Assembly: GCA_963782915.1 (NCBI GenBank)
Contig: CAWALK010000020.1
Span: 288,001 to 352,000 of the forward strand
Source of the DNA: an uncultured archaeon
GTDB lineage: Archaea; Thermoproteota; Bathyarchaeia; Bathyarchaeales; Bathycorpusculaceae
Direction of reading: 5' to 3'
Length of the DNA stretch: 64,000 nt
Shown here: positions 3,679-64,000 of the stretch, one piece after another
Position numbering within the stretch: the first letter of the stretch is position 1
How the letters are laid out: the number at the start of each line of letters is the position of its first letter
Program-made: the position numbers and the translations under genes
The notes under the pieces: generated by a model
Told to the model about the DNA's origin: nothing
What the model saw: the letters and a program-made list of their open reading frames with translations, nothing else
Databases searched by the model: none

Positions 3679-4545
3679 ATGCCATCCCAACAAGTATTAG
3701 ATGAGAAATCAAGCGAAGTAGAAGCCATAAAAGACATATTCAAAGAATACAAATCCGTCGGCATCGCCAGCCTCAAGAAGGTCCGCGCCTCACAGCTACA
3801 AGAACTCAAAAAAACCATGAAAGGCCAAGTTTACCTACGCGTCCTCAAGAACACACTGACTAAAATTGCCCTTGAAGAACTGAACCAAGCAGAACTCAAA
3901 AAGCTTGAGGAATACTTGGAAGGATCAAACGTTTTCCTCTTCACTGACTTAAACCCCTTCAAATTAGCCTTAATGCTCGAGAAGGGCAAAGTCAAAACCT
4001 TCGCTAAAGCAAACGATACCGCAGCAGAAGACATAGTTGTTCCATCAAGCAACACCGGTCAACCACCAGGACCAGTCATCAGCCAACTAAACGCCGTCGG
4101 CCTTCCTACAAGAATCGAGAACGGCAGCGTCTGGGTTAGCAAAGACACCCTTGTCGTACGCAAAGGTGAAGCAATCAACGATCGATTGGCAGGTGTCCTA
4201 TCTAAACTCGGCATAAAATCCGTCGAGTTAGGCATCTCCATGCGTGCAGTCTACGACAACGGTATGATGATTAACGGTGACCTACTCAAAGTTGACGTAG
4301 CAGCCACAAAACGCAGTGTTGAAGTAAGCAACCAAGAAGCATTCGCACTCGCACTCGAAGTCGGATACGCATCTAAAGATACAATTAAGCCACTACTACA
4401 ACGTGCACACCAGAAAGCAGTATCACTATCAGTCGGAGCAGCCATCCCAACCAAAGATACCATTGCAGAATTAATCCGCAAAGCCAACTCAGAAATGACT
4501 AGCCTAAGCAGCGCAGTCGACAAGGCCAAGCCAAAAGCAGCCTAA
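3679..4545 (+). CDS. rpl10: 50S ribosomal protein L10 (P0)
   Basis: VLKNTL, NTGQPPGP, LSKLGI; AAGGAG ribosome-binding site upstream. Confidence 0.95.
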   Translation: MPSQQVLDEKSSEVEAIKDIFKEYKSVGIASLKKVRASQLQELKKTMKGQVYLRVLKNTLTKIALEELNQAELKKLEEYLEGSNVFLFTDLNPFKLALMLEKGKVKTFAKANDTAAEDIVVPSSNTGQPPGPVISQLNAVGLPTRIENGSVWVSKDTLVVRKGEAINDRLAGVLSKLGIKSVELGISMRAVYDNGMMINGDLLKVDVAATKRSVEVSNQEAFALALEVGYASKDTIKPLLQRAHQKAVSLSVGAAIPTKDTIAELIRKANSEMTSLSSAVDKAKPKAA

Positions 4546-52689: not shown

Positions 52690-52767
52690 GGGTCCGTGAC
52701 GCAGTACGGATAGCGTGTCAGCCTTCTAAGCTGAAAGTCAAGGGTTCAAATCCCTTCGGACCCGCCA
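52690..52767 (+). tRNA. tRNA-Arg (anticodon TCT), intronless, CCA encoded
   Basis: Acceptor GGGTCCG/CGGACCC, anticodon arm TCAGC-CTTCTAA-GCTGA, T arm AAGGG-TTCAAAT-CCCTT, 3' GCCA. Confidence 0.96.
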
Positions 52768-53047
52768 TATTACTCACTTTAGAGCTTAATTCTGCATTTA
52801 CTAGGTCAACATTATCTATGTGACCATTATGACCAATTTCCGATTTATCTGTAGGTAATTCAATAAGTTTGCTGTTAATATACTCTATAGATTGTTGATG
52901 ATATTCAAATTGTGCTTTACCATTCTGTCTGCCAATATAATGTCTAGCTCTACCATAAGATAACTCCCCATTGCTCCTAAAGAATAGTTGAATTGTAGAA
53001 ACTTTGCCGCATTCTTCACACTCAAACTGTAAACACTTAATCTTCAT
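52718..53047 (-). CDS. hypothetical CxxC protein (cassette 1); C-terminus reads antisense through the tRNA 3' half
   Basis: CEECGK...IQ.F......YGRARHY......FEYH.Q. Confidence 0.65.
   Translation of the reverse strand: MKIKCLQFECEECGKVSTIQLFFRSNGELSYGRARHYIGRQNGKAQFEYHQQSIEYINSKLIELPTDKSEIGHNGHIDNVDLVNAELSSKVSNMAGPKGFEPLTFSLEG
52768..52797 (+). repeat. cassette repeat R0 (degenerate, abuts tRNA CCA)
   Basis: TATTACTCACTTTAGAGCTTAATTCTGC vs R2 AAGAACTAGTTTTGGAGCGTAACTCTGC. Confidence 0.5.
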
Positions 53048-53102
53048 ACCAATTCCTTCTACTTGGAGCTGGCTGGAGAGCTAGAAGAGGTATTTAATGA
53101 CC

Positions 53103-53128
53103 CCTAAAGAACAATTTTGGAGTGTTAG
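53103..53128 (+). repeat. cassette repeat R1
   Basis: CCTAAAGAACAATTTTGGAGTGTTAG. Confidence 0.75.
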
Positions 53129-53167
53129 TTTAGTTAACTTCTTAAGGTTAACTAACTTACATAGTTA

Positions 53168-53467
53168 GTGATTGTAATGGTTGAATTATCTCCATTGGCT
53201 GAGATACTTTTTTTCCTTCAATATCTCATGTTACCATTAATTCCTTTTGTTGTTGGAGGAATTTTGTTCTATTTTAAGCCTAAGCATAGAGTGAGCATTG
53301 GAATATCATTGATTTGTTTTGGAGTTCTTAAATTATTATTTGTGTTTAATGAGTATTGGTATCTGTATATGGCATATGGTTTCTTTGGTTTTCTGACAAT
53401 ACTTCTAGGGGTACTCTCTGTTCTTTACCCCAAAATGCTAAGCAAAGACAATAGAATTAAGAACTAG
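53168..53467 (+). CDS. small 3-TM membrane protein (cassette 2)
   Basis: Hydrophobic ORF; stop TAG lies inside repeat R2. Confidence 0.75.
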   Translation: MIVMVELSPLAEILFFLQYLMLPLIPFVVGGILFYFKPKHRVSIGISLICFGVLKLLFVFNEYWYLYMAYGFFGFLTILLGVLSVLYPKMLSKDNRIKN

Positions 53468-53481
53468 TTTTGGAGCGTAAC
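53456..53481 (+). repeat. cassette repeat R2
   Basis: ATTAAGAACTAGTTTTGGAGCGTAAC. Confidence 0.9.
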
Positions 53482-53763
53482 TCTGCTTTGTTTTCTCTTC
53501 TTATTAATACAATGAAGATAGCATTACCTATCAATGTAACGATGAATGCAAACAATGGGTAATTCCACAATGGTGTCTCCAACTCCTGTTGGTGTATATT
53601 CTATTGGACCTATGTATTTTGTGCTTATAAAAATACCAACTGAGCTCACCACTTCATTTGTGTTTATTAGTTCTGATAAAACAAATTGGCTAGACAAGAC
53701 TAATACTAAACTCATAACAACATTGAAAACAATCATATTTGTTGTTAACTTACTGAATGTCAT
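53457..53763 (-). CDS. small 2-TM membrane protein (cassette 3; frameshift near 53575)
   Basis: Shifted frame gives PLWNYPLFAFIVTLIGNAIFIVLIRRENKAELRSKTSS*, ending in R2; similar to cassette 4 protein. Confidence 0.7.
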
Positions 53764-53843
53764 AATAGCTATTGCTTCTTTGTCTGCTTATAAAATTAAG
53801 GCATATTCACTAAAGACGCTAATCATCTAGTACAGCAACCAAT

Positions 53844-53869
53844 CATTAAGAACTATTTTTAGAGCATAG
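53844..53869 (+). repeat. cassette repeat R3
   Basis: CATTAAGAACTATTTTTAGAGCATAG. Confidence 0.85.
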
Positions 53870-53912
53870 GCTTGAGGGATGAAAAATCTATTATAGCTTA
53901 GACTACTGAAAG

Positions 53913-54212
53913 ATGGCTATGCATAAAATAGCTAAGATTGCTATGGTAACCAATCTTATCTTAGCTCTGCTTTTTATTTATTCCAACTTATTAGTTTGGG
54001 ATGTCTTCAATGGCAATAATGCTTTACATAGGACTGAGTTTGCTACTCATTGGGGATTCAATAACTATCTCTTAACATTCTATGACCATTTACCTGATGG
54101 TAGTGTTGGAGTTGTACAGGGAATTTTTATTTACCCAAATTTCCCAATCTGCGTATTCTTTGTTGCTCTAGCAGTAAATCTATTCTTTATCTATAAACTG
54201 AGCAAGAAATGA
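53913..54212 (+). CDS. small 2-TM membrane protein (cassette 4)
   Basis: N-terminal TM, loop, YPNFPICVFFVALAVNLFFIYKL. Confidence 0.78.
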   Translation: MAMHKIAKIAMVTNLILALLFIYSNLLVWDVFNGNNALHRTEFATHWGFNNYLLTFYDHLPDGSVGVVQGIFIYPNFPICVFFVALAVNLFFIYKLSKK

Positions 54213-54219
54213 TAAGACC

Positions 54220-54245
54220 ATTAAGAACTAGTTTTGGAGCGTTAG
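54220..54245 (+). repeat. cassette repeat R4
   Basis: ATTAAGAACTAGTTTTGGAGCGTTAG; first 23 nt identical to R2. Confidence 0.9.
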
Positions 54246-54275
54246 ATTTCTATAATTCAGGTATGATCTTATTGA

Positions 54276-54401
54276 TTAAACAGTAATTTTGAAGCTTTTA
54301 TGGCATTTATCGCAATCATAGACTTGGATAAAGAAAGCACTGTTCTTTAGTTCTCTTGATGGGGTTGTAACTTCGTTTTCGCAATTGGGACATTTTGCCA
54401 C
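54276..54401 (-). CDS. 41-aa zinc-ribbon protein (short Cren7-like paralog; not in ORF track)
   Basis: MAKCPNCENEVTTPSRELKNSAFFIQVYDCDKCHKSFKITV; paralog at 58484-58609. Confidence 0.75.
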   Translation of the reverse strand: MAKCPNCENEVTTPSRELKNSAFFIQVYDCDKCHKSFKITV

Positions 54402-54526
54402 AGGTATCAGTAACTTCAGCGCTTACTCACATTCGGAATATGAACATTGCCCTCTGGCGTTGCCCTAATAATCCAACAAACTATTGATGCTAATCATCTA
54501 TACCCCTATCATACTACTCTTGGGGG

Positions 54527-55339
54527 TTATCCAATTTGGAATGCCCTCATTGAAACCGAGCCATTCTGGAAACCCTCATGAATGAACCTTAGCTTATCCT
54601 CTTTTCGCTGGAGACCAATTGCGTAAATCATTGGCAAGTAATGGTCTTGAGTGGGCACCGCATAGACTGCTTCTTTTCCTAACTGGAGGTAATTAATGAG
54701 TGCTTGATGATCCCTTGAAACTAGAGCCTGCTTGATTTTCCCGTCAAATTCTACAGCCCAATCAAACGGTTCGGCATCTATATCAAAATCTATCACCCCT
54801 AAATTGTGGACAATGTTGCCGCTGCCGATAATCAGTACCCCTTTCTCCCTAAGAGGCGCAAGCTCGGAGGCTAACCTGTAATGGTACTCGATGGGTTTTG
54901 GGTTCCAATTATTGTAGGGCGAGTAGTCTAAGCTCATTTCATAGACTGGGATGTTGGCTTCTGGGTACATGTGCTTTAGAACTGCCCATGCTGCATGGTC
55001 AAGCCCCCAATCGCCGCATTTTACTTCGGTTGATTTGACGGTGTTTATTGTTAATTGGGCATCTTTTGGGGCGCCTGGGCTGGGGTAGTTGGTTTGGTAT
55101 AGTTCGTCTGGGAAACCGTAGAAGTCATAGATTGTTTTGGGTTTGTTTGTGCATGTGACGTATGTGCCGTCTGTTAGCCAGTGGGCGGAGATTACAAGTA
55201 TTGCTTTTGGCTGGGGGATTTCTTTGGCTGCCTTAACCAAGCTGCGGGTATAGCTGTTATCTAAGATTATGTTCATGGGTGAGCCATGCCCTATGAAGAG
55301 AACGGGCATAATTTCGGCTTGTTTTGGCATTCCAGTCAC
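54527..55339 (-). CDS. 4,5-DOPA dioxygenase-like extradiol dioxygenase (LigB/YgiD family)
   Basis: LFIGHGSPMN, ISAHW, TIYDFYGFP, WGLDH..W, GSGNIVHNL, PT.DHYLP. Confidence 0.92.
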   Translation of the reverse strand: MTGMPKQAEIMPVLFIGHGSPMNIILDNSYTRSLVKAAKEIPQPKAILVISAHWLTDGTYVTCTNKPKTIYDFYGFPDELYQTNYPSPGAPKDAQLTINTVKSTEVKCGDWGLDHAAWAVLKHMYPEANIPVYEMSLDYSPYNNWNPKPIEYHYRLASELAPLREKGVLIIGSGNIVHNLGVIDFDIDAEPFDWAVEFDGKIKQALVSRDHQALINYLQLGKEAVYAVPTQDHYLPMIYAIGLQRKEDKLRFIHEGFQNGSVSMRAFQIG

Positions 55340-56173
55340 TTTTTAGCTTTTATGAAAGTTCCCTCTTCCAGCTCTTCGTAAGCTTGGTCTAATTCTTCTT
55401 CGGTATTCATCACAATTGGTCCTCTCCACGCTACAGGCTCATTTAGCGGTTCACCTGACACAAAAAGAAAACGACAGCCACCTTTAGAGCATATCTTAAC
55501 TAAGTCGCCTTCACCGAAAACTACACACTGCCCCTGTTCAACGGTTTTGCCTTGAATCTCCGCAGAGCCCTCAACAATGTAAGCAAAACACAGTGTCATT
55601 CTTTGGCGTTGCATGCTCGAATATTTCACCAGCCGTTAACTCGACATCAAAATATTCAATATCAATCGCTAAATCCCGAACAGGACCCTGAATTCCACCC
55701 ACCCTACCCGCTATAACCTTAATCTTTGCTTCGTCTTTGTTGACCGTTGGAATCTGCTCTTTAACTATGCCCCGATATTTCGGGTCAACCATCTTTTTCT
55801 TTGCTGGCAAATTCACCCATAACTGAAAACCCTGCATCAAACCCTCATACTTCTGCGGCATTTCCTGATGAATAATACCCGAACCCGCAGTCATCCACTG
55901 AACATCCCCCGATTTGATTACCCCTTTGTTACCCATACTATCGCCATGTTCCACTTCGCCCGTCCACATGTACGTGACTGTTTCCATTCCTCTATGGGGA
56001 TGCCATGGGAAGCCTTTGATGTAGTCTTGGGGGTTGTCTGATCCGAAGTGGTCTAGCAGCAAGAAGGGGTCGAGTGTGGATTCATCGTCGTTTCCTAGGA
56101 CTCTTTTTAGTTTGACGCCTGCGCCTTCGAGGGTTGGTTGCCGATTCAAGATTTTGTGTATTTGTCGTTCCAA
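55336..56173 (-). CDS. pirin family protein (frameshift near 55580)
   Basis: DPFLLLD, GFPWHPHRG.ETVTY, QWMTAGSGIIHQE, QLWVNLP, GPIVMNT. Confidence 0.93.
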
Positions 56174-56377
56174 AAAAATCGCCTCAGAATAAAGGATTTT
56201 TCCCATTTTCTAGTTCCTTGTTCCTGCTAATATTTCTAGTGAAAATTCTCAGCTTAGCATAATCCGCATAGGCTGCCAACACATAACCGATTGCTACATC
56301 GAAAAGTATAATTCACCAACCTTTGTAGGCACCTGACTTACATATCCAAAAAGAACGCCAAAGGTGAACAAAGAAAC

Positions 56378-56782
56378 ATGCCATTGGACTGCGGAAACTG
56401 CTGTAAATGCGAAAACGAATTATGGGGAAGCTTCTATCCAGGGGAAGAATGGAAAATGAAGCATTTCCAAGGCTATGTTTTCCAGCTTGAAGGCGTATGG
56501 TTCTTCCACTCGTGTCCCCACCAGCAGAAAGACGGAAAATGCGGCGTACACGACGAATCTTGGCGCCCAATACAATGCCAAATGTACCCTTGCTACATAA
56601 ATTACCAAGGCGAAGTGGATGTGGATTTTGAGTTGTGCCCAAACGCTAAACAAGTCGATGATGACTTCAAAGCGTGGGTTAAAGGCATGTATACGCAACT
56701 GAATTTGAGTCTTGAAGAGTTGAAGCGTTGGGGGCAAGTTGTGGCTAAATGGAGTGAACCAGCCAAATGCCAAGTCAAGTGA
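56378..56782 (+). CDS. YkgJ/CxxCxxCC cysteine-cluster protein
   Basis: CGNCC, CPH....KCGVH....RPIQC.MYP. Confidence 0.75.
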   Translation: MPLDCGNCCKCENELWGSFYPGEEWKMKHFQGYVFQLEGVWFFHSCPHQQKDGKCGVHDESWRPIQCQMYPCYINYQGEVDVDFELCPNAKQVDDDFKAWVKGMYTQLNLSLEELKRWGQVVAKWSEPAKCQVK

Positions 56783-56946
56783 CTACCGCAAGTTCCACTT
56801 TTAATTCGAATACCATCAAGTTCACAAACTAAATCTCGCAGATTTCTGTAACATCAGAAAAAGATAAAACGTTACCGTGGCATGTTAAGTGGGGGTTAAT
56901 TGTCCTGCAGCATAGTAGTCGTATATCTATTCTTGTTACTGTTTTC

Positions 56947-57147
56947 ATGGTGTTGGTTCTTGTTAGCGTTATGTCATTTACTATGGTGTCGATTGCTGCA
57001 GGGTGGACTGATGCTTTTCTCCTTATGTTTACCCGAAATTGGCTTATTGGTGTAGTCGTTGCTTTACCTACTGCTCTGTTAGTTAACATTCCAATAGTGC
57101 GCTTGGTTAGAAGAATCTTCAAGAATAATGAGCTCAACGAAAAGTAA
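56947..57147 (+). CDS. small 2-TM protein (DUF2798-like; start may be upstream)
   Basis: MSF.M.....G....F...F..NW....VA.PT.L...P.VR. Confidence 0.65.
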   Translation: MVLVLVSVMSFTMVSIAAGWTDAFLLMFTRNWLIGVVVALPTALLVNIPIVRLVRRIFKNNELNEK

Positions 57148-57162
57148 ATTGAGACAAAAGGT

Positions 57163-58449
57163 CTGTTAACCCTGAACAGGAACCTAATCCCCAAAAGAAT
57201 ACCCGTTACAACCCCCGACTTAGTCGGGTACTCACTGCTAAAATACAGCGACGGACAAATCCGCTTAATCGTAAAATTCGGCGGCAGATTAGATGAAGCT
57301 ACTTTAGCTAAAGCTGTTAGGTTAGCGTTTGATGCATACCCCGTGCTTGGATGCATGTTTGTAGAAAAACCGTTTCGTCCCTATTGGCAGCGTTGCAGCA
57401 GCCTCCAAGACGCTTTTGAATTCAGTGACAGTCGCTAACCCGGAGCAGGAAGAAGCAACCACCGTTTTTTGCTGGCGCCGCTCGACCCATTTGCGGAGCC
57501 GCAGGTTAAAGTGGGTTTATTCCGCTCGGACGTTGATATTTTATGCATTAAAATGACCCATATTGTCGCGGACGGTGGCGCTTCAATGCAGTATCTCCAG
57601 CTGCTCTCTAGTATATACCGAAAGCTCAAAAAGCAGCTGAATTTTCAGCCCAACCCCAATTTAGGCGGCGGCAGAAGCTACTTTGAGATATTGCGGCACA
57701 CCAGTATACCCAAACTGATGTTATCCTGCGCTCATATTTCAGTGCCCAAAGTCACCTGGCAATTCCTCAAGGCAAACAATGAAAACCTCCGCCCTTGCTT
57801 ACTCATCAAACGCATCGGACCAAAACATTTTCTCCACATCAAAACATATGCAAAGAACAATAACGTAACCATCGGCGATGTTTTACTAACCGCTTACTAT
57901 AGAGCGCTGTTTAAAGTGATTGATCCACCAGAAAACGTTGCCTACGCACTGTTTATTCCTGTTAATCTGCGTAAATATCTTCCAGAAGGCACCCGCAAAT
58001 CAATGGGTATGTTATCAGCGAGCTATTTTGCCAGTATTAAGCATAAAAAAGACGCGCCTTTTGGAGAAACTTTGTCTTTGGTGCATGCTGCTCTGAAGAA
58101 GGAAAAATCAAAACAAACCGAATTAGCCTTAATGTTCGCGATGGAGTTAATTCCTTTTCCCGGTTTTGTTATTCCAAGGGTTATTGGGCCATCGGTTTCC
58201 TCGGTCTCTGCACTGCCTGAATTCTCCAACATTGGCGTAATTGATGCTCAAATCGCCGATTTCGGCGATGTTGCCGTTGAGGAGATATTGTCTGCTGGCC
58301 CAACGATGGCGCCGCCGCTTTTCTGTTTGGGCTCCAATACCTTCAATGGCGAAATGCGACTGACCGTTAGCCTATATTGCAACGATGAATACCGTGTAAA
58401 AGTCGAGGGTTTCTTGGATAGTTTAATTACGGAATTACCGACAAAATGA
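57163..58449 (+). CDS. stand-alone condensation-domain / CoA-dependent acyltransferase (frameshift near 57430; start uncertain)
   Basis: N-terminal GRLDE..L.KAV......PVLGC.F; HIVADG active-site motif; PVNLR; SNIG. Confidence 0.8.
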
Positions 58450-58483
58450 TGTTAATCAAGAAATTGGGGTCTACTTATTGGTG

Positions 58484-58609
58484 CTAATGTAGCTCTTTAA
58501 AACTATAGTGACATTTATCGCAGTTATAGGCTTGAATGGTAAATGCACAATTTTTCAGCACCTTTGAGGGCTTGTTGACTTCCATAGCACATTTTGGACA
58601 TATCGCCAC
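58484..58609 (-). CDS. 41-aa zinc-ribbon protein (not in ORF track)
   Basis: MAICPKCAMEVNKPSKVLKNCAFTIQAYNCDKCHYSFKELH. Confidence 0.75.
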   Translation of the reverse strand: MAICPKCAMEVNKPSKVLKNCAFTIQAYNCDKCHYSFKELH

Positions 58610-58834
58610 AGAGACACCAACCTTCCTATTGGTTGCTTGCCAGTGATAAGAATCTAATTGACACGGTTATGCAAAAAGAAAGCCTTCCTATTTTGCTGTC
58701 ATGGGCTAGTGTGTATCATAAGCCTGTCTATATGAAATAACAATATATTCTATATCAATGGATAACGCATACATAAAACCGTGCAGGCAAATAAAAACGC
58801 GGAAAAACTCTAATTTGCATGGCGCTAAATAGTT

Positions 58835-59209
58835 TTAGAACTCAACAGCCAACTGCACAACCGCAGCCAAAAACTCCACATCCCCCACCACCCGAGTCGT
58901 ATGTCCCCTGCCGCTTAAATCTTCCAAAAGAAACACATCACCCGAGCGGAAACTCCGTTTTTCACCATCACCGGCAGTCAACACTACCTCGCCATGCAGA
59001 CAACAGAAAAACTGTTTCTTAGGCGCCGGATGCCAATCGCCAAACCAACCCACAGGCAACCTAAAAAAGACCATTTTGCTGGCATCCATAAAATCCGAGA
59101 GGCCGACGGGGGGTGCGGGAGGCGCAAAATTAACCAGTTCAAACCCTACTGTGGCATCTCTGAAATGCGATTCGCCATCCTTATCCGTGAAGAGGGTTAT
59201 ATACTCCAT
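58835..59209 (-). CDS. cupin domain protein
   Basis: DGESHF, DWHPAP.KQ, GD..LLED..GRGH. Confidence 0.85.
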   Translation of the reverse strand: MEYITLFTDKDGESHFRDATVGFELVNFAPPAPPVGLSDFMDASKMVFFRLPVGWFGDWHPAPKKQFFCCLHGEVVLTAGDGEKRSFRSGDVFLLEDLSGRGHTTRVVGDVEFLAAVVQLAVEF

Positions 59210-59541
59210 AAATTACCAGCCAACAATAACAAGTGTTTAGGAATTTATATTCATACTGCCGTATCTATCATGATGCCGATTTATCCCTCGGGAACTCCTG
59301 CCCTCGTTATGGTGATGGCTGTTCTGGTTTATGGACATAGCGAATGTTGCGGGTCAGGATGAAACTTGACCAAGGCGTTGGCGAATTGCCCGTGTATAAT
59401 TCTTAATAATCCAGCTTATTCAAGATAAGACTACATAAACCGTTGCCACCGTGGCAGCCTTGACAAGTTTGATGGCAAAAAGACTACCTCTTTTGCTAAA
59501 AAAAGATGCATGTCACATAATTAATCATGGAAACGGGGTTG

Positions 59542-59973
59542 TTAGACGCTGGGTCCTGTTGGATAGCGTCCTAGTGCATCAAGAATCTCTTCAGTAGTCG
59601 TCTTTTTGCCTACGTTTCGCACAAAATCTGATGCTACCACTATTCCGACTAGCTTGTTCTGCTTAAGAACAGGTAACCGCCTGATCTTGTTGGTGGACAT
59701 TATCCTTGCGGCTTCCTTAAGTGAAGTTTCTGGTTCAACTGTGATTAGTGTTTTAGTCATAACATCGGTTAATTTAGTGTCTAATGAGGCCCGTTTGGCT
59801 ACGATTCTTCTTACGATGTCTCGTTCAGTAATTATTCCAACAGGAAAAGCTTTGATTACGACGATTAAGCAGCCCAATCCGTTCTCAGTCATAAGTTCTG
59901 CTGCTTCAAATACGGTTTTGTTAGCTTCTACTGTTATTACTTCTTTTGTCATGATGTCTTTAACTGCGGGCAT
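59542..59973 (-). CDS. CBS domain protein
   Basis: Two CBS repeats: VKDIM, GIITERD, IRRLPV, VGIV...D. Confidence 0.92.
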   Translation of the reverse strand: MPAVKDIMTKEVITVEANKTVFEAAELMTENGLGCLIVVIKAFPVGIITERDIVRRIVAKRASLDTKLTDVMTKTLITVEPETSLKEAARIMSTNKIRRLPVLKQNKLVGIVVASDFVRNVGKKTTTEEILDALGRYPTGPSV

Positions 59974-60281
59974 AAATGATCACGTTAATAAATTAAAATT
60001 CTGGATAAAAGGGTTGTTATTGGTGTTATTTTTTATTTTTTTTATTCTTATTATTTGGTATTGATGCATTTTTGCTTCGGAAAATGAGTAATTCTGCTAA
60101 ATGTGCGGGGGAACCACTTTTCTAATTCAAGACCGTCGTTTTTTTGGCAAATTAACCTTCTATTGGTGAGGTGTGGTTTTTGTGTCCATATACAGCAAAA
60201 TATTGTGGTGCTGATTTGGTAAACGCTTATAAGGTTAGCCGTATATGGGTTGAGGCTATTGAATTAAGGAGAAAAGAAATA

Positions 60282-62895
60282 TTGAACACTAAAAGTAAAA
60301 CTGCAACTATTATGATTGCGGCATTATTGATAATTTCAATGGGAGCTTCAATATATGCACAGACAGCAACTGCAGCAACAACAAGATCAACATTTGCTTA
60401 TGTTACAACCATGCCTCACAACGTTGGGGTTGGCGACACCCTCACTATTTACATGTGGGTCAACCAACTCTTCCCAAGTACTGGTATGGCTAATGACTAC
60501 AGATTCCACAACTACCAGTTAGTCATCACACATCCAGATAACACAACAAAAGACACTTACACAATCGCAACAGTTCAAGATACAACTTCTAACCAAGCAT
60601 ACAGCTACACTCCAACAACAACCGGAACTTACAAAGTAGAATTCTTCTTCCCACAAACACTCGTTAACGCATCTAGTCACGCAACAGGTGCAACAGCTGA
60701 CGACGTTTATCTAGCAAGCAACGCAACATGCACCTTCACAGTACAAGAAACCTCAATCGGCAACGCACCAGACAGCTATCCCCTACCAACCGAATACTGG
60801 ACTCGCCCAATTTACGGAGAGAACAGCTACTGGTACACCATATCCTCAAATTGGCTTGGATTCGGTGCACCTGGCTACCTATGGAACAGCCCTTCAACTT
60901 TCGGAGCAATGATGGGTGGTAACGGTCAACAATATCCATCTGACGCAGTTGGCTCATTAACCAACCACATCATGTGGACAAAACCACTCCAAACCGGCGG
61001 TGTCGTCGGTGGAGACACAGGCGCAATCGCAGGCAATACCTACTTTGACGGCTCAGCATACTTCGTAAGATACGTAAACCCAATCGTTGTCAACGGATAC
61101 ATCGTCTACACTGAACCATTATCTTATGCCCAAGGAACCGGCGGCGACACAGTATGTGTTGACCTACGCACAGGCCAAGAATTATGGAGAAACCCAACAA
61201 TGGGCACTCTATCATTCGCCTTAATTGCTGACTTCGAAAACCCCAACCAACACGGTCAATTCAACGCACAACTCGTCGCAGTAAGCGGAACTACTTGGAG
61301 ATTTTACGATGCAGACACTGGCAGAGCACTCTTCAATGCAACAGGCGTTCCATCAGGCACAAAAGCAATGGGACCAAACAATGAATATCTACTATACACC
61401 GTCACAAACCAAACCGTAGGATGGAATCTATCACAATGGAACTCAAGCAGACTATGGACACAAGGCGGAACCGGTACAACAGCAAACGTTAACACAGTAG
61501 TAGCAGCAAACACAGCCGCACAGATATGACTGGTCAACCAACATAACAGTCAACGGCGCAAACTTGACTACATCACAAAACTTCAGAGTCCTTGCAGCAT
61601 ACTACGACGACTACATGCTATGCATGAACGGTACATTCCCATCAACAGGCACCAACATGTTCTTCGGAGCAACAGAAACATACCAACCATACACCTACTT
61701 CAAAGTAAACCTAAACGCATCTAAAGGTGCTATCGGCAAAGTCGATTGGATGAAAACTATAACACCAGCAACCAATACAACAGTCGTCTACAGCGGTGTT
61801 GACACAACTAACAATGTCTTCGTCGAAGGCGACCGTGAAGAACTCTGCTGGAGAGGTTACAGCTTAACCGATGGCTCACTACTCTGGAATACCGTATCTT
61901 ATCCACAAGACGCAATGGACTACTATGGCAGCCAAGCATCAGGCAGCTTAACCAACTCATTCTACGACGGCAAGATGTACAGTGCAGCATACGCAGGCAT
62001 TGTCTACTGCTATGATACAACCGACGGTTCATTACTCTGGACCTATGGTAACGGCGGCGCAGGCAACAGCACAGACAGCGGCTTCTCAGTTCCAGGCAAC
62101 TACCCAACATTCGTCTCTGGCTTCGGTAGCGGCGTAGTCTACACCCTTACCTCAGAGCACACAATCGAAACACCACTCTACAAAGGCGCAATGCAACGTG
62201 CACTCAACGCAACCACCGGTGCAGAAATCTGGACCCTAAGTGGTTACACCAACGAATTCAGCCAAGGCGCATTTGCAATCGCAGACGGCTACAACACATG
62301 GTTCAACGGCTATGACAACCAAGTCTATGTTGTCGGTAGAGGCGCAAGCCAAACCACCGTCACAGCACCAGACGCAGGCTTAACACCAGGTCAAAGCGTA
62401 GTCATCAGAGGCACAGTAACAGACATTGCAGCAGGCACAACACAAAACGAACAATCACAACGCTTCCCTAACGGCGTAGCAGTCGCATCTGACGCAAGCA
62501 TGAAAGACTGGATGGGCTATGTTTACCAACAGAAACCATTGCCAACCAACTTCACCGGTGTCGAAGTTACCATCAGCGTCGTTGACGCAAACGGCAACTA
62601 CCGCACAATCGGTGCAGCAAAAACAGACGCAACTGGCGATTACTCACTCTCGTGGGTTCCAGACATCACTGGCGACTTCCACGTCATCGCATCATTCGCA
62701 GGCACTAACGGCTACTTCCCATCAAGCGCAGACTCAAGCTTCACAGTTGACAAAGCAGCAGCAACAACAGCACCAACAGCAACACCAACACAAACAGCAT
62801 CTGACCTATACTTCATCCCAGCAATCGCAGGTCTACTCGTTGCAATCATAGTTGTCGGTCTTCTGACCATCGTTATCCTCAAAAAACACGCATAA
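60282..62895 (+). CDS. large secreted PQQ-like beta-propeller surface protein with C-terminal TM (frameshift near 61525)
   Basis: AAGGAG RBS plus TTG; signal peptide; PLPTEYWTRPI, CVDLRTGQELW, V.IRGTVTD, MKDWMGYVYQQ; TM tail. Confidence 0.85.
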
Positions 62896-62919
62896 AACAA
62901 GGAATAAATGAGAACCATT

Positions 62920-62960
62920 TATTCTCCCTTTTTTAATTTTTTTGTTTTAATTTTTGTTTA
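62920..62960 (+). terminator. oligo-T terminator region
   Basis: Consecutive T-runs after the surface protein gene. Confidence 0.5.
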
Positions 62961-63096
62961 ATCAGCTCGTTCACGTTTAGCTTCAGAATAATTCTGCTCT
63001 GTTATTACTCCGCAACAATCACATACCGTTAAAAGCAACATGCAATGAACGTTCTATCGGTAGCCACCCGACCAGTATCCTTTGGATAGTGATTGC

Positions 63097-64000
63097 ATGA
63101 AAGCTCAATTATGCACTCGAATAGACAAAATCGAAAACCATCCCTTAATCTACACAACAGTACCGAATCCAACCCCCAAACCCGATCAAGTGCTTATCAA
63201 AGTGAAAGCCTGCGGTGTATGCTACAGCAACCTGCATATGATAGAGGGTGAACTCAAACAATTCGGTGTCCCGGCAAAACTCCCGATTATTCCCGGGCAT
63301 GAAGTTACAGGCGAAATTGCAGAACTCGGCAGTCAATCAAGGGGATTTGAAGTTGGCGATAGAGTAGGCGTTCAAGTTCTATGGAAAACCGATGGCACCT
63401 GCGAGTTCTGTCTCTCCGGCCGAGAAAACCTATGTCTCAAACGCCAAACCACCGGTGAAGTAGTCGACGGCGGATACGCCGAATACATGGTCGCCCCCAG
63501 CGCCTTCGTTCATCACTTACCCGATAACTTGGGGTATGAAGAGAGCGCTTCACTATTCTGCCCCGGCGTTACCGCTTACCATGCCGTTAAACGGGCAAAC
63601 GTACGCGTCGGCCAAAAGGTAGCGGTTATTGGCATCGGAGGGGTGGGTCACATGACTTTGCAGTTTGCCAAGCTGGCGGGAGCCGAAACTGTTGCGGTTG
63701 ATACTTCTGAAGCTAAGTTAAAGTTGGCGCAGGATATTGGTGCGGACCATGCTTTAGTTGCAGCTGAATTGGATGAATTCGTCGTTAACACTGGGAGACC
63801 CGATGTAGTTATGGTTCATGCGCCTTCCCAGAAAGCCGTGGAGCAGGCACTCCGTATTGTGAAGCGGGGCGGAACCGTTTTGATGGGTGTCTGCGGTGAT
63901 GCGCCTATGCAGTTTCCTGAGGAATACACGATTATGGGTAGCGTGATTGGGACGCGGCAGGAGATGAATGAGGTGTTGCGGTTGGCTTCTATGGGTAAGG
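63097..64000 (+). CDS. zinc-dependent alcohol dehydrogenase (3' end outside window)
   Basis: ACGVC, PGHE..G, C..C..G.ENLC, GIGGVG. Confidence 0.93.
   Translation, partial: MKAQLCTRIDKIENHPLIYTTVPNPTPKPDQVLIKVKACGVCYSNLHMIEGELKQFGVPAKLPIIPGHEVTGEIAELGSQSRGFEVGDRVGVQVLWKTDGTCEFCLSGRENLCLKRQTTGEVVDGGYAEYMVAPSAFVHHLPDNLGYEESASLFCPGVTAYHAVKRANVRVGQKVAVIGIGGVGHMTLQFAKLAGAETVAVDTSEAKLKLAQDIGADHALVAAELDEFVVNTGRPDVVMVHAPSQKAVEQALRIVKRGGTVLMGVCGDAPMQFPEEYTIMGSVIGTRQEMNEVLRLASMGK

Follow-up and report, generated by a model that had tools for sequence, protein, structure and literature searches.

A split SSV-type integrase and a polar 28-bp motif among small genes at a tRNA-Arg locus of an uncultured Bathyarchaeia archaeon

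Elements carrying a so-called suicidal integrase are known from Sulfolobales and Thermococcales. This work deals with a tRNA-Arg(TCT) locus of an uncultured archaeon of the Bathyarchaeia (family Bathycorpusculaceae), at which a fragment assigned to an integrase of this kind is followed by an AT-rich islet of small genes, separated by a short, directly repeated motif. The whole stretch analysed, hereafter the window, is 64,000 nucleotides long (contig CAWALK010000020.1, positions 288,001 to 352,000), and is part of a 3.28-Mb, 93.5%-complete assembly (G000); this and all other genomes examined are metagenome-assembled. Suicidal integrases, marked in SSV, pTN3 and pT26-2 by the PF16795 family, hold the attachment site (att) within their own gene, so that integration splits int into two pieces, int(N) and int(C) (PMC8371274).

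Short sites next to small genes have been described in other settings. PeSL sequences of T4-type phages, each a sigma-70 promoter joined to a stem-loop terminator, are short conserved intergenic motifs which lie beside small uncharacterised genes in hyper-variable regions; the borders of insertions, deletions and replacements fall at the motif, and mini-circles are reported to form by recombination of adjacent motifs (Arbiol et al. 2010, PMC2839356). Integrons with a bacterial structure have been described in archaea (10.1101/2022.02.06.479319), and attC sites are single-strand hairpins of at least 50 nt, conserved in structure and variable in sequence (Ghaly et al. 2022, 10.1101/2022.02.06.479319). 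In the dif site, a 6-nt spacer separates two inverted repeats of 11 nt each (PMC8371274). The initial annotation of the window had proposed a gene-capture platform, either integron-like or similar to modules bounded by plasmid dif sites (pdif), and served by a recombinase acting in trans.

The integrase gene split at the tRNA

The features at the integrase end of the locus are the following.

52690-52767, + strand: tRNA-Arg(TCT), the host half of the left attachment site (attL); ARAGORN, Rfam 68.3 bits
52718-53047, - strand: int(N), CxxC beta-rich domain plus linker, N-terminal piece of a split SSV-type integrase, as assigned from homologues
53048-53102, - strand: putative int promoter region, with a TATA-like box, tatttaat (53091-53098), directly against the motif copy R1; alike in 23 of 24 int(N)

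The gene closest to the tRNA (gene 1, 109 aa), annotated initially as encoding a CxxC protein, is, judging from its homologues, an int(N), formed when the entry of an element into tRNA-Arg(TCT) split the integrase gene. A search among longer proteins gave one match, P0039 (395 aa, 49% identity over 96% of gene 1), the C-terminal part of which matches PF16795 ('archaeal phage integrase') at 29.1 bits, the cut-off being 27. The last ~16 codons of gene 1 are antisense tRNA sequence. Relatives of gene 1 number 38 and range from 67 to 156 aa. The whole tRNA-antisense tail (GFEP...LEG) is found in 16 of the 24 that were aligned; three of the others have a similar tail, one is broken within the tail, two run into a tRNA in the sense orientation, and two stop earlier. 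The tail, M/V-A-G-x-x-G-F-E-P-x-T-x-S/N-L-E/G-G, is the antisense translation of the T-arm and acceptor stem of a tRNA. Since the tails of the aligned relatives encode tRNA sequence, int(N) nearly always abuts a tRNA gene. The dN/dS ratio (nonsynonymous to synonymous substitution rates) of int(N), 0.10-0.45, indicates purifying selection, and is silent on the activity of int(N) after integration. In the AlphaFold2 model of int(N), residues 1-63 are predicted with confidence; no fold could be assigned to it, the best hits being E 0.12 with Foldseek against the Protein Data Bank (PDB) and Z 3.9 with VIA-align. ESM Atlas leads for int(N) and gene 4 scored at most 0.90, and came without a Pfam family.

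The other half of the integrase was looked for in vain. The contig of the window has no int(C), no second piece of the tRNA of at least 12 nt, sought as the right attachment site (attR), occurs in 52768-64000, the window has no catalytic recombinase domain, and G000 has no intact integrase of the gene 1/P0039 family. As int(N) alone remains, without int(C) or attR, the islet is best seen as what is left, on the attL side, of a decayed integrated element. The initial statement that the window encodes no recombinase holds for the catalytic domain, and has to be amended for gene 1, which is a fragment of an integrase.

Relatives retain both ends. A complete split element of ~2.9 kb is inserted in G000 itself, on another contig, at tRNA-Gly(TCC) (G000:C24:151783-154741; loci L105-L110). 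Its att sites, 2,880 bp apart, are identical 42-nt repeats of the 5' half of tRNA-Gly(TCC), at 151820 and 154700; int(N) and int(C) of a P0039-like gene (82-88% identical) flank ~1.7 kb with four small open reading frames (ORFs). Upstream of int there is an inverted, near-palindromic, diverged form of the motif. In another species, int(N) and int(C) reside at tRNA-Arg(TCT) 2.8 kb apart, beside a 32-nt att repeat (L082/L122). There int(N) ends with ...GFEPLTLSLEG, a 294-aa int(C) ORF begins with ...GFEPLTLSLED, and the int(C) of L082 matches PF16795 at 40.6 bits (cut-off 27). Exact att repeats of 32 and 43 nt, corresponding to tRNA positions 34-65 and 34-76, were measured in L122 and L123, and exact repeats are found in L124 and L125 as well. 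By analogy with these complete copies, the att core of the window copy would span about tRNA positions 34-65 or 34-76. The R/K/R/Y signature (LSGxR, KN, LR, GR, HY) is kept in 11 aligned int(C) or full-length integrases; a PDB sequence search returned only three 'Probable integrase' chains, with a weak E of 0.7. Matches to P0039 exist in 84 of 120 genomes of the genus, in which its N part (about residues 1-115) and its C part (about 110-390) are nearly always found apart, and this element family appears from such matches to be abundant in one soil/peat genus of Bathyarchaeia. By tblastn the integrase had no match in phage and plasmid collections, and a metagenome scan with P0039 gave one locus, L137, which encodes an intact 335-aa integrase and is uninformative, because both the CxxC domain and the motif are missing.

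The family thus resembles SSV-type elements (SSV1/SSV2, pTN3, pT26-2) in having the PF16795 catalytic domain and att inside int, and in that integration into a tRNA leaves int(N) and int(C) at opposite ends, by direct att repeats. PF16795 with its catalytic residues and the att-split int are all found in the relatives; the window has only an int(N) running into the tRNA, without the second end (int(C) and attR), and its copy is a truncated remnant. Unlike SSV-type elements, those described here live in a Bathyarchaeia host, are very small when complete (2.8-2.9 kb), have a polar motif at the int promoter and between cargo genes, and carry an N-terminal CxxC beta-rich domain without a structural match. 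In the literature searched, supplementary files being outside the search, no paper joins 'suicidal integrase' with 'Bathyarchaeota', and none contains the motif string; these elements are not described in the excerpted text of a paper on Bathyarchaeia viruses.

The motif: sequence, position and distribution

Four copies of the motif, and possibly a fifth, lie in the islet.

53103-53128, + strand: R1, diverged copy beside the int promoter; nhmmer E = 3.8 genome-wide
53456-53481, + strand: R2, 26-mer with 2 mismatches; nhmmer E = 8.9e-7
53800-53869, + strand: R3 (53844-53869) with a conserved ~40-nt left extension, the 'type b' flank; nhmmer E = 2.4e-6
54220-54245, + strand: R4, exact match to the 26-mer; nhmmer E = 2.8e-8
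54480-54526, + strand: possible degenerate fifth copy (weak) at what may be the right edge of the AT-rich islet; direct repeat

The copies reported initially at 53103, 53456, 53844 and 54220 are genuine, R1 and R3 being the more diverged: no match to the 26-mer was found in 100 dinucleotide-preserving shuffles. As had been noted, all four are co-oriented, each on the + strand (spacings of 353, 389 and 375 bp), and the DNA is AT-rich, with a G+C content of 0.327 in the 53-54 kb interval and of 0.41-0.53 elsewhere in the window. Each interval hosts one ORF, and the alternating order (-,+,-,+) described at first agrees with the ORF positions; a fifth small ORF (-) follows R4. The degenerate copy placed at 52768, beside the CCA of the tRNA, has to be dropped: the int(N) frame has its 3' end there, the likeness to the motif is on the opposite strand, and nhmmer does not detect a copy. 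As to the candidate at 54480-54526, a direct repeat (D5) shares 86% over 21 nt with the R3 flank and a second alignment (A3) agrees, while the nhmmer profile leaves it undetected.

Fifty-nine distinct copies yield the consensus aAcCaTTAAGAACTAaTTTTGGAGCgTaa, ~28 bp long with ~22 informative positions, which features a dyad, AGAAC-N(1-2)-GTTyT, together with a T-run, and has stops in two or three of the reading frames. The imperfect dyad seen initially in the window copies, AGAAC-TA-GTTTT, pairs at 10 of 12 positions, as judged by eye. Of the 59 copies, 20 have a stop in each of the three frames, as do 10.5% of control 35-mers.

The motif is confined to few places. A search of G000 with an nhmmer profile built from 26 copies found it at two loci only, the array in the window and one on contig C2 (L001:3800-6600 = G000:C2:20800-23600). 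The C2 array has three strong copies and a weak one, no tRNA and no int, and contains an int promoter remnant. It hosts a paralogue of gene 2, a zinc-ribbon paralogue, and secreted-protein genes with several in-frame stops or frameshifts. The scan of related genomes suggested at the outset found the motif, at up to 3 mismatches, in 11 of 24 further members of the genus, versus none of 16 genomes that belong to different genera of the same order; 3 hits were obtained with the reversed control. An exact 19-nt pattern matched 40 loci in the GTDB genome collection, which by title belong to Bathyarchaeota/Bathyarchaeia (25), an 'uncultured archaeon' (1), Hadarchaeum (1) and bacteria (13). The bacterial matches look like chance, because about 17 hits were estimated to occur by chance. 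The same pattern had no hit in IMG/VR, and neither this search nor the tblastn of the integrase gave any sign of a viral origin. On these sequence comparisons, the motif is specific to this element family within one Bathyarchaeia genus.

Three identities of the motif were considered and set aside. It is not the 3' end of a tRNA or an att remnant, as none of the 41 tRNAs of G000 begins or ends with AAGAAC/GTTCTT; a tRNA search of the left flanks of the motif gave nothing better than E = 0.03. It is not a structured RNA or a known RNA family, as Rfam gave only the tRNA above the gathering score, and no consensus fold emerged; a sub-threshold Rfam match (E 0.055) lies antisense on the tRNA. Nor is it a terminator or transcription-factor site of ordinary genes, since only two loci of G000 carry it.

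That the repeats reflect chance similarity, an assembly artefact or an array akin to clustered regularly interspaced short palindromic repeats (CRISPR) can practically be dismissed. The repeat length of ~28 nt fits such an array, and nothing else does: the shuffles speak against chance, the motif recurs in many independent assemblies, and the intervals, 258-1537 bp long, are coding, unlike the short, uniform, non-coding spacers of a CRISPR array, in line with the initial remark that the spacers do not suit CRISPR.

Modules of the pdif type, served by the host XerA, are very improbable too. pdif sites flank their module in alternating (inverted) orientation. The resemblance lies in short sites of ~28 bp which bracket small single-gene modules, and in a window without a catalytic recombinase. 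Unlike pdif, the sites are direct and all co-oriented, and the 59-copy consensus has no 11-6-11 dyad, putative arms matching at 0-2 of 11 positions; the sole dyad has arms of 5-6 bp and a gap of 1-2 nt. The motif is moreover confined to these elements, at two island loci in G000, and this 93.5%-complete assembly has no strong match to PF00589.

The basic position of the motif is 40-65 nt upstream of the int start, on the opposite strand, abutting a TATA-like box, GGATATAAAGACC or TATTTAATGACC. This architecture, as judged by eye, is kept at 23 of 24 int(N) copies, next to tRNA-Arg(TCT), Arg(CCT), Gly, Pro and Ser genes, and we infer from it that 53048-53102 may have a promoter function. Some int-promoter copies keep only CCATTAA...GGAGCGT, with a variable centre, and three copies of the Gly type come close to a perfect palindrome, CCATTAAGAAC-N-GTTCTTTAGGGG. 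Because the Gly-type copies are near-palindromic, a dimeric DNA-binding protein is suggested. The left extension of R3 ('type b') accompanies about a dozen copies in other genomes. In the window, copies lie both between divergent gene starts (R1, R3) and between convergent gene ends (R2, R4), and several unrelated ORFs enter the motif and end at its stop codons.

Cargo genes and reassortment of modules

The genes between the motif copies are listed below.

53168-53467, + strand: gene 2, 99-aa hydrophobic protein of family F7, with its stop TAG inside R2; ORF list
53457-53763, - strand: gene 3, small hydrophobic protein, frameshifted (ORFs 53524-53763 and 53457-53582); ORF list
53913-54212, + strand: gene 4, 99-aa hydrophobic protein of family F8; ORF list
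54276-54401, - strand: fifth cargo gene, 41-aa double-CxxC zinc-ribbon protein of family F3; ORF list

One CxxC protein and three membrane proteins had been described. The former is int(N); the membrane nature of the products of genes 2 to 4 is judged by eye, and gene 3 is frameshifted, hence either a pseudogene or a sequencing or assembly error. In metagenome-assembled genomes, sequencing errors may account both for this frameshift and for the stops of the C2 array; an intact minus-strand homologue of gene 3 is found in G020, another genome. No cargo gene has a match above cut-off in Pfam, PHROGs or NCBIfam; the fifth one matches PF25206 weakly, below the cut-off.

Adjacent motif pairs up to 2 kb apart are co-oriented in all of 18 cases, at spacings of 258-1537 bp, and most cargo families have a constant orientation with respect to the motif. 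In F7, all five members share the strand of the motif and lie 50-140 nt downstream from a copy. In F8, four of five ORFs are on the motif strand, the fifth being a 49-aa ORF which overlaps another gene; homologues of gene 4 directly follow the int-proximal motif in G020, L067 and L075. Of the secreted-protein family members that lie no more than 3 kb from a motif, 10 of 12 share its strand, the exceptions being an ORF immediately next to a motif in G023 and a truncated ORF at a contig end in G020. TM_F5 is opposite to the motif strand in 6 of 6 cases. F3, which has 10 members in motif islands, is opposite in 7 of 9 distinct ORFs; at one locus two copies face opposite ways, and one further copy, on the motif strand, faces an adjoining weak inverted motif.

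The edges of homology coincide with the motif. Homology between the TM_F5 modules of the C2 array and L082 begins exactly at the motif 5' edge, and that shared by two secreted-protein modules stops at the motif 3' edge. Left-flank classes (int promoter, 'type b', secreted-protein coding end) pair with different right-flank classes. Because homology edges sit at the motif and flank classes reassort, the motif seems to mark the junction of module exchange. The gene-capture platform of the initial annotation therefore survives in part: the units are cassette-like, with varied arrays and reassorting flanks, and they are neither free-standing nor served only in trans, being the cargo end of an element. 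Among the 10 matches listed in a search of public sequencing runs, none covers more than 8% of the words sampled from the locus, and no RNA run is listed.

Arrays also differ at the tRNA. A real int(N) is found at 5 of 28 tRNA-Arg(TCT) loci of the genus, the window included, and loci with the upstream glycosyltransferase gene of the window mostly lack both int(N) and motif. In G020 the same tRNA gene (88% identity over the tRNA and 43 nt upstream; no glycosyltransferase gene within 1.5 kb of the tRNA) is followed by int(N), motif, gene 4 homologue, motif, intact gene 3 homologue, weak motif, two secreted-protein genes and motif. The gene order is therefore 4-3, as opposed to 2-3-4 in the window; number, order and content of the cassettes vary at the same tRNA. 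Beyond the G020 array lie three partial tRNA fragments, then a second int(N). Partial 3' fragments of the same tRNA are seen downstream of tRNA-Arg in other species as well (L054:6780-6758, 5793-5772 and 1624-1604; L126, L128). Because of these multiple downstream fragments, tRNA-Arg qualifies as a hot spot for repeated integration. Small ORFs resembling, by eye, toxin-antitoxin pairs (HicAB-like, PIN-like) lie between the fragments. A CBS-domain gene is located 0.64 kb after the tRNA in two species, versus 6.8 kb in the window (59542-59973). Because of this difference, 52768-59541, with its LigB-like, pirin-like and cupin-like genes, may be a variable or older island.

Strict polarity, fixed strands, reassorting flanks and breakpoints at the motif are what could be expected of a site-specific system dedicated to cassettes, an archaeal counterpart of integrons that arose independently. 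In such a system the CxxC domain of the integrase, persisting as int(N) or provided in trans by related elements, would recognise the polar 28-bp site, the integrase or some other recombinase would cut the motif, and circles of motif plus gene would be excised and reinserted, carrying single genes from one element or chromosomal island to another. This is supported further by a motif sequence far better conserved than the genes it separates, by the integrase gene always near the motif in the basic element, and by the ORFs which enter the motif and use its stop codons. The motif, however, lacks an arm-spacer-arm core, apart from the dyad with 5-6 bp arms and a 1-2 nt gap, forms no hairpin, and is unrelated to the tRNA att sites demonstrably used by the integrase; the variable centre of many int-promoter copies is odd for a crossover region, and G000 lacks an intact integrase of the gene 1/P0039 family. 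We regard the hypothesis as rather unlikely.

Nor does the array belong to the known systems proposed initially. With integrons, and with clusters of attC sites lacking integron-integrases (CALINs), it shares mostly single-gene units, co-oriented sites, a nearby tyrosine-recombinase gene, and ORFs which end in or at the site. Unlike integron sites, the motif is 28 bp long, conserved in sequence and unstructured; the integrase is of the PF16795 family and not IntI, and genes lie on both strands. Single-stranded hairpins were sought in R1-R4 with ~40 nt of each flank, on both strands (z from -1.6 to +2.2, 0 of 8 significant), and RNAalifold on 19 motif copies gave -0.9 kcal/mol and no compensatory pairs. 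PF00589 is absent from the window, and its best match in the genome, on another contig, scores 26.7 bits; the IntI-specific domain itself was not searched. The GTTAGAT after R4, noted at first as a fit to the GTTRRRY of integron cassette junctions, is not conserved: GTTAG follows R1, R4 and one C2 copy, and the 59-copy consensus reads ...GGAGCgTaa. Cassettes do not share one orientation, as the window runs -,+,-,+,- and F3 and TM_F5 regularly lie on the strand opposite the motif. With no hairpin, no IntI, no 11-6-11 dyad, and genes on both strands, membership in either the integron or the pdif family has to be abandoned.

Some observations concern the cargo in general. The secreted proteins (L054:8215-9791; L001:5126-6269) have at the C-terminus a PEFP, a hydrophobic stretch and a KRK-type tail. 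By eye this resembles a 'PEF-CTERM-like', archaeosortase-type sorting signal; NCBIfam gave 0 families for three L054/L060 proteins. A second recurring sequence, TTAGTCAAGAAACTTTGAC (palindrome GTCAA-N6-TTGAC, often in tandem), is found upstream of secreted-protein genes, and may be the site of a separate regulator. Sites of this type are the following.

L073:5500-5600: TTAGTCAAGAAACTTTGAC-type
L077:6350-6440: TTAGTCAAGAAACTTTGAC-type
L081:190-250: TTAGTCAAGAAACTTTGAC-type
L082:2680-2700 and 4440-4500: TTAGTCAAGAAACTTTGAC-type

A second 41-aa double-CxxC paralogue lies in the window at 58484-58609 (-), 4 kb past the islet, in DNA of normal G+C content and with no adjoining motif detected.

The role of the motif

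It may be argued that the motif serves regulation or insulation only, as an operator, terminator or translational stop, and takes no part in recombination, that arrays result from tandem integration at the tRNA followed by deletions, and that each module brought its own motif. The motif does lie against the TATA box of the int promoter and 50-150 nt upstream of most same-strand cargo genes, and has a dyad and a T-run. Tandem integration is real, as told by the tRNA fragments and second int(N) of G020, and by the int promoter remnant of C2. On the other hand, it would take a precise deletion in every case for genes to end right at the motif, one and the same right-hand module is found behind different left contexts with the junction at the motif, and R2 and R4 lie between convergent ends, where there is nothing for an operator to control. 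A role in regulation alone seems quite unlikely.

The reading we favour, and hold to be somewhat probable, is that the AT-rich islet is an element remnant, and the motif a polar, operator- or insulator-like boundary site which serves as the crossover point of modules. A small element with an SSV-type integrase would have entered tRNA-Arg(TCT), splitting int at its internal att. The int(N) piece would have stayed beside the tRNA, int(C) and attR would have been lost later, and the islet, from 52768 to ~54500, would be the attL-proximal remnant. The basic motif copy, against the TATA box of the int promoter, is probably bound by a protein encoded by the element, and the extra copies would delimit single-gene cargo modules. 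Co-oriented copies could provide crossover points at which co-resident or tandem elements gain, lose or swap modules, plausibly by Campbell-type recombination between elements, either homologous or aided by the integrase. PeSL cassettes of T4-type phages are the analogy for the module shuffling proposed. As with PeSL, the motif lies at the borders of the differences between related genomes; unlike PeSL, it has no stem-loop and resides in an archaeal host.

The split integrase, its family and tRNA targets, and the distribution, polarity, position and reassorting flanks of the motif are observed; the motif binder, the regulation and the recombination pathway are steps that we infer. Several points weigh against this reading. 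No single promoter or terminator role fits all copies, because these lie at divergent starts as well as at convergent ends, and three-frame stops are found in only a third of the copies, as counted above (20 of 59). A dyad operator needs no polarity, yet the arrays are strictly polar. Twenty-eight bp are short for homologous recombination, and the shortest segment used by the pTN3 integrase, in the excerpted account, is 104 bp (PMC8371274). Between the window and G020, int(N) shows a synonymous divergence (dS) of ~1, and because of this the different cassette orders may reflect independent insertions. Complete elements carry few motifs or none (one in L122, one strong and one weak in L125, the diverged inverted one in G000:C24, none in L123 and L124), and arrays may for this reason arise chiefly in islands under decay.

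The lineage is uncultured, and to our knowledge almost nothing is known of its mobile elements. The polar motif and the reassorting modules offer a testable handle on the exchange of genes for small membrane and secreted proteins in these archaea, and the motif is a handle on the control of the integrase promoter too. Were the motif a recombination site, it would represent a second, structurally different solution to gene-cassette capture. Were it a regulatory cassette which promotes shuffling, the PeSL principle would reach beyond phages, to integrative elements of archaea.

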